This document shows positions 47,404 to 48,629 of a DNA stretch of 64,000 nucleotides, piece after piece. The stretch's first letter is position 1, and each line of letters begins with the position of its first letter. This DNA comes from Eledone cirrhosa (taxonomy: Eukaryota). Both the position numbers and the translations under genes were made by a program. Location of the stretch: positions 342,860,001-342,924,000 of the forward strand of contig OZ024741.1 in assembly GCA_964016885.1 (NCBI GenBank), written 5' to 3'. The notes beneath the pieces were generated by a model. It was not told where the DNA came from. It was given only the letters and a program-made list of their open reading frames with translations, and made no database searches.

Positions 47404-48629
47404 ATATTTAGAAACACACAGATACATGCGGACACACACATATATACATGAATGCATCCGCACCCAACTGTGAGTTAAGGGTGCCAACTTCACCGATGTT
47501 GCTCAATGAATGACTGGGACAGACCAATTCAGTTTGAACCAGACTGAACCAGTATCAGAGTTAAAAATACATTATGAAGAGAGAAGAAACATTTAGATAT
47601 AATTAGTAATAAAATGTATCATACCTAAACTGTTCCTAAATTCCTCGACTACGTAGTTTCGTGGCATAAACAAAAACAATATATCAAAGATATAGAGTCC
47701 TTGCGAGGTCTGCCGACTTATCAAGAGGATACCTCATTTTACTAGTCTCAAGAACGCGTCTACACGACGTGAGAAAGAATCCCAAAAGGCGGAGGGGGAG
47801 ACAGTCACGCGATATAACGGTCGAGAAACAGAGCTAAGCCTCTTATAACCACGAAGAAAATACCACGGAGGCGGAGGGGGTATTTATATCGAGGCCGTAG
47901 AAGAGGTAGTGAAGAAGGCGAGAAGTATGAGTAATGGAAGCTTTCCAGTTGTCCCCACACTTCAAAGATTGCTCGACCAGAGGGAGTTATTAATATATTT
48001 AGAAACACACAGATACATGCGGACACACACATATATACATGAATGCATCCGCACCCAACTGTGAGTTAAGGGTGCCAACTTCACCGATGTTGCTCAATGA
48101 ATGACTGGGACAGACAAATTCAGTTTGAACCAGACTGAACCAGTATCAGAGTTAAAAATACATTATGAAGAGAGAAGAAACATTTAGATATAATTAGTAA
48201 TAAAATGTATCATACCTAAACTGTTCCTAAATTCCTCGACTACGTAGTTTCGTGGCATAAACAAAAACAATATATCAAAGATTTCTTCACTACCTCTTCT
48301 ACGGCCTCGATATGAATACCCCCTCCGCCTCCGTGGTATTTTCTTCGTGGTTATAAGAGGCTTAGCTCTGTTTCTCGACCGTTATATCGCGTGACTGTCT
48401 CCCCCTCCGCCTTTTGGGATTCTTTCTCACGTCGTGTAGACGCGTTCTTGAGACTAGTAAAATGAGGTATCCTCTTGATAAGTCGGCAGACCTCGCAAGG
48501 ACTCTATATCTTTGATATATTGTTTTTTTTATGCCACGAAACTACGTAGTCGAGGAATTTAGGAACAGTTTAGGTATGATACATTTTATTACTAATTATA
48601 TCTAAATGTTTCTTCTCTCTTCATAATGT
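47404..48629. mobile_element. Family D second locus: 591-bp tandem units plus inverted segment; hammerheads at 47642-47729 (-) and 48470-48556 (+)
   Basis: atatttagaaacacacag at 47404 and 47995; 48283-48629 inverted; U3-A8 core retained. Confidence 0.85.

Follow-up and report, generated by a model that had tools for sequence, protein, structure and literature searches.

Anatomy of the insertion and its ribozyme

The window, a stretch of 64,000 nt from Eledone cirrhosa (OZ024741.1, 342,860,001-342,924,000), contains at 47402-48630 a two-armed repeat insertion, in which head-to-head arms of 881 nt and 348 nt sit inside one (TA)n tract. This locus is a real feature. Its repeat has a period of 591 nt (the sequences at 47406 and 47997 are 99.65% identical over 286 nt), and the unit is numbered here from U1 to U591 in the sense of the ribozyme, with the origin directly after ...TCTTCATAA, the first fixed end. 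Genome-wide counts refer to the 3.0-Gb genome. The features of the locus, followed by the two arms of a second insertion in the window, are as follows.

47286..47407, no strand: left-flank (TA)n target tract, period 2, 61 copies
47402..48282, minus strand: arm B, 881 nt, aligned to the unit as U472-591, a full unit and U1-170
47402-47406, minus strand: outer end of arm B, fixed site B, putative second start of reverse transcription; this end recurs genome-wide
47413..47476, minus strand: long hairpin predicted at U96-159, immediately upstream of site B in the RNA (fold z -5.1; sister family z -3.9)
47572..48162, minus strand: complete 591-nt unit, non-coding, predicted by circular folding to be highly structured as a circle
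47642..47729, minus strand: type I hammerhead motif, found by descriptor, with a U3-A8 core, a bulged stem II with a long loop and a palindromic stem III
between 47647 and 47646, minus strand: predicted cleavage position of the minus-arm hammerhead
48163..48282, minus strand: incomplete unit U472-591, lacking the UUGAUAA half but containing another predicted cleavage site (48238/48237)
48282..48283, no strand: head-to-head arm junction, U472 against U247, no microhomology
48283..48630, plus strand: arm A, U247-591 (48283-48626) and then TGTA, four further unit bases
outer end of arm A: fixed site A, putative first start of reverse transcription, 75-79 nt past the cleavage site
48470..48556, plus strand: another complete type I hammerhead motif with U3-A8, its cut predicted after 48551
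48552..48622, plus strand: long hairpin predicted at U517-587, flanked by the cleavage site and site A (fold z -4.4; sister family z -2.4)
48629..48657, no strand: right-flank (TA)n target tract
22396..23455, minus strand: arm A of an insertion from an older subfamily, 1.8 units in length, with site A (22396) as its outer end
23452..23592, plus strand: second arm of the older insertion, which ends near U121-138 and not at site B

The first-pass annotation had estimated the inverted portion at about 1.5 units of period 591, and the 881 nt of arm B do amount to 1.49 units. The arm that it began at 47404 is confirmed as such, but the actual outer end lies at about 47402-47406 and, far from being a random 5' end, belongs to a second fixed register. 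Its statement that the sense 3' ends of the two loci share a register holds to within 4 nt, the difference arising because the insertion at 22396 passes from U591 straight into (TA)n while the arm that starts at 48283 adds TGTA first. The two loci are 93.7% identical, and the older one (22396-23592) is one of the few exceptions to the one-site-per-arm rule described below. The minus arm at 47402-48282 traverses the predicted cleavage site twice. Units inside the locus at 47402-48630 differ at 3 places and other loci come as close as 2 differences to its full unit, so that the expectation of higher identity within than between loci fails for this young copy.

In each unit the parts of a hammerhead follow one another in the order stem I, UUGAUAA, a bulged stem II with a long loop, GAAA and a 10-nt palindromic stem III, and the descriptor predicts a cut after U516. 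This descriptor had been relaxed to allow the bulge in stem II; its strict version missed the 591-nt family. The U3-A8 core is kept, as the earlier annotation had claimed, with UUGAUAA present at 47718-47724 (minus), at 48475-48481 (plus) and in each of the two complete units at 22396, where one of the two ribozymes carries a substitution in stem III. Rfam at the gathering score gave no hammerhead match in the window, and recognition of the motif is based on the descriptor and on conservation. An exact core and stem III are present in 294 of the 310 units that cover the ribozyme, and UUGAUAA is altered in just 2 of them. The 44 positions of the core and stems contain just one of 46 inherited substitutions (those common to at least 4 loci), and this one is at the bulged base. 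The palindrome of stem III is kept in the sister family through a double change. To judge from these patterns of substitution, the ribozyme appears to be under selection.

Stem III has a predicted energy of +1.5 kcal/mol as a hairpin and of -12.9 kcal/mol as a duplex of two copies, and this pairing of an unstable hairpin with a stable duplex fits the known dimer mode of action (PMC4209133). When the 121-nt ribozyme region was folded alone, no hammerhead fold was obtained (z -0.5). The circular fold of the unit has an energy of -169.7 kcal/mol (z -6.7 against 30 shuffles); in it self-pairing is predicted to block the ribozyme, and hairpin U517-587 to compete with ribozyme stem I.

The unit contains 245 G or C residues among its 591 bases. 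No ORF was found in it or joined to any mapped insertion, and the longest stop-free frame in the locus at 47402-48630 has 86 codons. Copies of the family range from near-identical to about 93% identity. At least 2 full units are present in 35 of the 92 loci that hold a full unit, and the longest insertion seen (L031:1352-8805) has 11 full units in arm B and 1.5 units in arm A. TA runs occupy both sides of 71 of 80 loci, and a target-site duplication is illegible inside (TA)n. A sister family (L198-L227) is older and non-coding, is 70-72% identical to the unit and has a ribozyme of the same type. L227 and L190 look intermediate between the two families.

Two fixed ends, one for each arm

The inverted arm carries its own fixed outer end, at U170-175, which the earlier reading had overlooked. 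This end, site B, lies 166-172 nt beyond site A. Exact site A end junctions occur 1,882 times in the genome, which bears out the fixed 3' register expected by the first-pass annotation, and exact site B end junctions occur 967 + 604 times (the 170 and 172 forms). All of these counts are lower bounds, and the reversed control patterns gave 0. Thousands of exact end junctions against none for the reversed controls exclude chance. The variable 5' register that was also expected is found at the inner ends, which do vary, but the outer end of the inverted arm is fixed at site B.

The two sites are distributed between the arms with near regularity. Among 106 two-armed loci, 94 have one end at A and the other at B, and none is A/A or B/B. 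In the sample collected by site A (80 regions in position order, covering 82 of the first 85 site A matches listed) there were 28 single arms and 52 two-armed loci, of which 50 were A/B and none A/A. The sample collected by site B (40 regions from matches outside those already covered) yielded 23 single arms, 13 A/B loci, 4 others and no B/B, while 59 loci picked by similarity comprised 22 single arms, 31 A/B, 5 others and 1 cut by an edge. In 12 of the 106 two-armed loci one end is at neither site, and a few of these 12 could be trimmed B/B insertions. Single-arm insertions end at A or at B, and it follows that each site can act alone. The same arrangement is seen beyond this family. The one-site-per-arm rule holds in 19 of 22 two-armed loci of the sister family; in an autonomous family that encodes reverse transcriptase (RT) and a GIY-YIG endonuclease the ends lie 82 or 150 nt past the cut, with one of each in 3/3 two-armed loci; and each of four two-armed insertions in the window, from three further hammerhead families, pairs a short end with a long one.

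Sites A and B each lie just 3' of a predicted 60-70-nt hairpin, in both the 591-nt family and the sister family. The changes in these hairpins are mostly one-sided and preserve pairing, and covariation is weak (3 of 61 pairs changed on both sides, among 16 sequences that form two related groups). Such hairpins are absent from the one autonomous family that was folded. A pairing of A with B in one helix was seen in a local fold only, is absent from the circular fold and from the family consensus, and was rejected.

Tandem arrays and flanking microsatellites are unstable, and a few arrays show patterns of duplication. Whole two-armed insertions, flanks included, occur twice about 2.6 kb apart at L097 and L183, so DNA-level duplication of inserted copies does happen. 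As an account of the family itself, however, a DNA-level satellite or inverted duplication that arose without an RNA step is refuted by the fixed registers: thousands of dispersed insertions have two exact end registers and random inner ends, and the conserved ribozyme and a strand-biased excess of A>G changes (see below) also stand against it. An assembly artefact is opposed by the presence of the unit in six public sequencing runs from three studies, and we attach next to no credence to either explanation. The element is a non-coding non-LTR retrozyme with at least 1,882 insertions. It is a variant of this class, since its monomer of 591 nt exceeds the described range of about 150-450 nt, which is a description and no strict criterion.

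How do the two arms come to be inverted? The earlier reading supposed rolling-circle reverse transcription followed by a template switch. Spelled out, such a scheme would have a single priming event, rolling-circle copying and a switch to the new cDNA or to an antisense RNA, after which an endonuclease would trim the second end. It has precedents in the proposals of antisense self-priming for head-to-head Penelope structures (PMC3846280) and of a tail resolved by the endonuclease (PMC8557442). If synthesis switched to the new cDNA, the second arm would have to be nested in the first. In 34 of 52 two-armed loci the arm lengths make such a fold-back impossible, although the other 18 are compatible with it. 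The arms are not nested, with arm A the longer in 28 of the 52 loci, and there is no positive correlation between their lengths (rho -0.25, p = 0.07). In addition, single arms end at either site, and in vitro the tail has been mapped to two starts of reverse transcription (PMC11167929). Fold-back on cDNA is thus largely refuted, the template switch in this form being contradicted both by the fixed site B and by the arm lengths in the 34 loci, and we consider the whole single-priming scheme very improbable.

The template switch is better replaced by priming at two fixed sites. A purified Penelope-like protein, for which a dimeric form is predicted, cleaves and extends the two strands, and it starts at two internal RNA sites whose spacing equals that of the genomic tail (PMC11167929). 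In the present family the arm junctions overlap by at least 2 nt in 52 of 81 loci (8 complex junctions are omitted from this count), compared with 31% of 300 simulated joins. From the non-nested arms, the activity of lone sites, the junction overlap and the published protein with its two strands and two starts, we infer with considerable confidence that twin priming takes place on one RNA, one strand per site. In LINE-1 twin priming, both strands prime cDNA on one RNA and a head-to-head inversion forms at microhomology; there the position at which the second primer anneals varies, and each arm is copied from a different part of the RNA. In the present family, in contrast, each start has a fixed position, and the two arms overlap in the repeated sequence that they copy.

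Circular and linear templates

The first-pass annotation had argued for a circular RNA template from the length of the inverted arm. An RNA intermediate and continuous read-through are supported by the present data, but the argument from length is not: an arm of 1.5 units proves no circle, because an uncleaved tandem transcript explains it equally well. A Penelope-like element with a dead hammerhead inserts normally in vitro (PMC11167929). The cleavage site is crossed without insertion or deletion in 339 unit copies, and inner ends show no pile-up there (2 of 228 at U516-517). Both observations fit a circle or an uncut RNA alike.

The positions of the inner ends bear on two further candidates, the cut linear monomer, copied with a jump from the 5' end back to a 3' end, and a dimer or trimer circle. 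Five of the six inner ends at U516-519 are exactly on the first base of the cleavage product (the pattern used missed copies with a variant at U530), and from these ends some templates may have been linear. They belong to five loci, to which one B arm (L261) with the same starting base can be added. Against the cut monomer are the 339 crossings without an indel and the finding that, of 25 inner ends in a 25-nt window, 3 are at the cleavage site and 11 at nearby microhomology. Dimer circles have been formed in vitro from retrozyme RNA (PMC7229834), and in L054, L066 and L067 every-second-unit patterns of variants would fit them; such alternating patterns are few, however, and occur in older loci. 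We regard this pair of templates as distinctly unlikely.

A stronger competitor is twin priming on a linear multimer, the uncleaved transcript of a long donor array, with the lengthening and homogenisation of arrays following later at the DNA level, by unequal exchange, slippage or conversion. Uncleaved RNA was the main substrate in vitro, and a multi-copy mRNA has been proposed (PMC11167929). Moreover, 21 of 45 single-arm inner ends within a 25-nt window cluster at U297-299, 22-24 nt after a TATA-like box, and this cluster could mark a transcript start, though microhomology may contribute to the clustering and the box is altered in 83 loci. The duplicated insertions at L097 and L183 are also in keeping with later rearrangement of arrays. 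On the other side, linear copying should be incapable of lengthening an array, yet one arm has 11 full units, and the upkeep of a ribozyme by a non-coding family calls for a function.

The variants carried by the units bear further on this comparison. Mutation spectra were compiled from 178 insertions, after removal of overlapping duplicates among L001-L030 and with L190 (83-89% identical) and the ambiguous positions U120-135, 168-177 and 474-478 excluded. Of the rare variants, 63 are common to all units of a locus across array positions, 18 are partly shared and 376 are found in a single unit. The locus-wide variants span both arms in 23 of the 63 cases, and in 13 loci they stand at differing array positions in both arms, which counts against a linear multimer. 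Sense A>G change is the mark of A-to-I editing. It accounts for 17 of the 63 locus-wide variants, or 12 of 56 distinct ones after merging repeats, against 20 of the 376 single-unit variants (Fisher p = 0.0002 for the distinct set), and in young loci it makes up just 2 of 94 single-unit variants. Single-unit variants show 20 A>G against 61 T>C; among distinct locus-wide variants the ratio is just 12:9 (p = 0.06), and among those that span both arms it is 8 to 2. In L229 three A>G changes lie within 16 nt in both units, and L135 has three A>G changes in 7-8 units of both arms. The candidate edited sites show no preference for pairing (8 of 15 paired, compared with 81 of 132) and slightly favour a 5' U (9 of 15). 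Edits made on a linear multimer would be expected to be unit-specific, and it is precisely the single-unit A>G changes that are under-represented; the locus-wide A>G changes therefore favour one unit that was copied repeatedly.

Some loci point the other way. In L032 one variant is present only in the outermost full unit of each arm, in register as a linear multimer would have it, and adjacent or alternate units share variants in L027, L049, L054, L065-L068 and L251. In L031 all units carry one variant, and a second is confined to 3 non-adjacent units. The comparison of distances within a locus with the distance to the nearest locus, which the earlier annotation had suggested, is uninformative (lower within the locus in 16 of 35, tied in 6, higher in 13). 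One contig of 620-621 nt in each of two sequencing runs, consisting of one unit plus an overlap at a depth of about 8, is given no weight as evidence, because the contigs carry the commonest family alleles and fit trace DNA of a high-copy repeat.

On balance the linear multimer is a serious but minority possibility. A circle is plausible, as the first-pass annotation had it, and now has the backing of the argument from genomic variants; on these genomic patterns a circular monomer is probably the main template.

These considerations can be assembled into a cycle, which we think somewhat likelier to be right as a whole than to be wrong. A non-coding hammerhead repeat would insert into (TA)n as head-to-head arms, when a Penelope-like RT-endonuclease acting in trans nicks both strands and primes at sites A and B of one RNA, probably a 591-nt circle. 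The tandem array would first be transcribed. The hammerheads, likely paired through the palindromic stem III, would excise the monomer, which a host ligase would close into a circle. The enzyme, likely a dimer, would then bind two similar modules 166-172 nt apart, in each of which a pyrimidine run and a UA-rich spot come after a long hairpin. Each nicked strand would prime one module, and both polymerases would travel in the same direction round the template, each stopping after a random distance that averages about 500-600 nt. Finally the two cDNA ends would join, often at 1-5 nt of microhomology, to give the head-to-head insertion, and failure of one side would leave a single arm that ends at A or B. 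The anatomy, the fixed ends, the pairing of A with B, the preference for (TA)n and the variant patterns are read directly from the sequence, whereas the enzyme, the twin priming, the cleavage, the circle and the editing are deductions.

The most specific form of this proposal we put forward only tentatively, since all its parts together are a little less probable than an even chance. According to it, an animal circular RNA is the direct template, and a Penelope-type dimer docks on the two hairpin modules of one 591-nt circle and primes both nicked strands at once, so that two polymerases run round the ring and edits are stamped into every unit of both arms; the tail would be no more than the distance between two docking sites that are both required, a distance that could expand from 30 to 170 nt.

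Relation to known elements and the surrounding window

The literature already contains the class of the element, the U3-A8 core and the hypothesis of a circle (PMC4209133, PMC7229834). With metazoan non-LTR retrozymes (PMC7229834, PMC7761336, bioRxiv 10.64898/2026.07.22.740005) the element shares a non-coding, low-GC tandem organisation without an LTR, a single type I hammerhead per unit and a range from dimers to multimers, as well as residence in a genome that also holds autonomous Penelope-like elements. These retrozymes have no LTR, PBS or PPT (PMC7229834), and their spread has been proposed to proceed through reverse transcription of circles (PMC7229834, PMC7761336). The unit of 591 nt differs from the RNAs of about 170-400 nt and repeats of 150-450 bp reported in PMC7229834. 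The two-armed insertions, the two fixed registers and the targeting of (TA)n were not met in the passages on metazoan retrozymes; in the main text of PMC7229834 the words "inverted" and "microsatellite" have 0 occurrences. That paper reports blocking of the ribozyme for plant but not for most animal retrozymes, whereas blocking in the circle is predicted here. Unlike the plant LTR retrozymes, with their type III hammerhead and LTRs, it has type I topology and plain tandem units.

Several traits are shared with the endonuclease-bearing Penelope-like elements, including partial tandems and an inverted, 5'-truncated arm (PMC11167929, PMC8557442, PMC3846280), an extension that is often at one end, AT-rich or (TA)n targets, and internal starts of reverse transcription downstream of the hammerhead. 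However, the tail is 166-172 nt here and 30-40 nt in those elements (PMC3846280, PMC8557442, PMC11167929), and the one-site-per-arm rule is near-absolute here while the Penelope papers, in the parts consulted, describe a tail that is optional or often one-sided and no strand difference in the start site. Unlike the autonomous Penelope-like elements, the 591-nt repeat has no ORF with RT and GIY-YIG between pseudo-LTRs. It works like a Penelope-mobilised insertion and not like an autonomous element.

The closest parallel to the ribozyme is in the Cercyon Penelope-like elements of Schistosoma, in which U3-A8 replaces C3-G8, a G10.1-C11.1 pair is present and helix III is palindromic, and for which circles were proposed as templates for more-than-unit copies (PMC4209133). 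All three features of the Cercyon hammerhead are shared. In the present motif helix III is a 10-nt palindrome, helix II is bulged and its loop of about 45 nt has a hairpin of its own, and the motif is found in a stand-alone non-coding repeat, in contrast to Cercyon.

A search for the partner enzyme gave 10,596 GIY-YIG candidates in the genome, of which 150 were scored. None of 40 GIY-YIG loci examined shares sequence with the unit, and sensitive blastn returned just CA/TA-repeat matches among the matches listed. The pursuit of a diverged relative as the partner led to the second non-coding family and not to an ORF. Frames with both RT and GIY-YIG were present in 4 of 7 loci scanned. The autonomous family mentioned above (L111, L112, L116, L118, L120 and L122) has RT and GIY-YIG and a minimal U3-A8 hammerhead; its tail of about 68 nt lies just before the start of the ORF, and it has CxxxxCxxC before the endonuclease, as PMC8557442 gives for Neptune and Nematis. 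A further stop-free Penelope-like frame of 1,096 codons, at L113:1775-5062, belongs to another family (44% to L111), and the descriptor found no hammerhead downstream of it.

In the openly accessible main texts searched, we found no strict one-site-per-arm rule, no 170-nt tail and no use of editing marks to infer the template. The copying of animal retrozyme circles into DNA as multimers, and the origin of the inverted arms and one-sided tails of Penelope-like elements, are steps that have long been proposed, and no demonstration of either was met in the literature examined. With thousands of young copies and a long mappable tail, the family makes the rules countable, namely one start per arm and edits common to all units, and it offers a defined RNA on which two docking hairpins are predicted.

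Hammerhead-like motifs are numerous in the window. At 46915-47285 a two-armed insertion of another hammerhead family, with a C3-G8 core, shares its TA tract with the locus at 47402-48630; its motifs are at 47003 (minus) and 47126 (plus) and its ends lie 44 and 115 nt past the cut. Three more two-armed hammerhead insertions, of two families, are at 45485-46860, 16917-17343 and 40636-40999, with the short end at +43 or +48 and the long end at +133 to +139. Hammerhead-like motifs of several families occur on both strands at 18517/18697, 19111, 29706, 32801, 33961, 42866, 54089 and 56778.

Other features of the window are of a different kind. Near-identical tRNA-like Rfam matches in opposite orientation, at 39977-40047 (minus) and 40410-40480 (plus), score 29 and 41 bits and are possibly a tRNA-derived repeat. 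A stop-free frame of 699 codons at 13108-15204 (plus) has no Pfam match. A 5-kb CAC-rich array occupies 4357-9480, and a pair of 406-nt repeats at 41311-41716 and 54897-55302, 96% identical and inverted, lies 13 kb apart.
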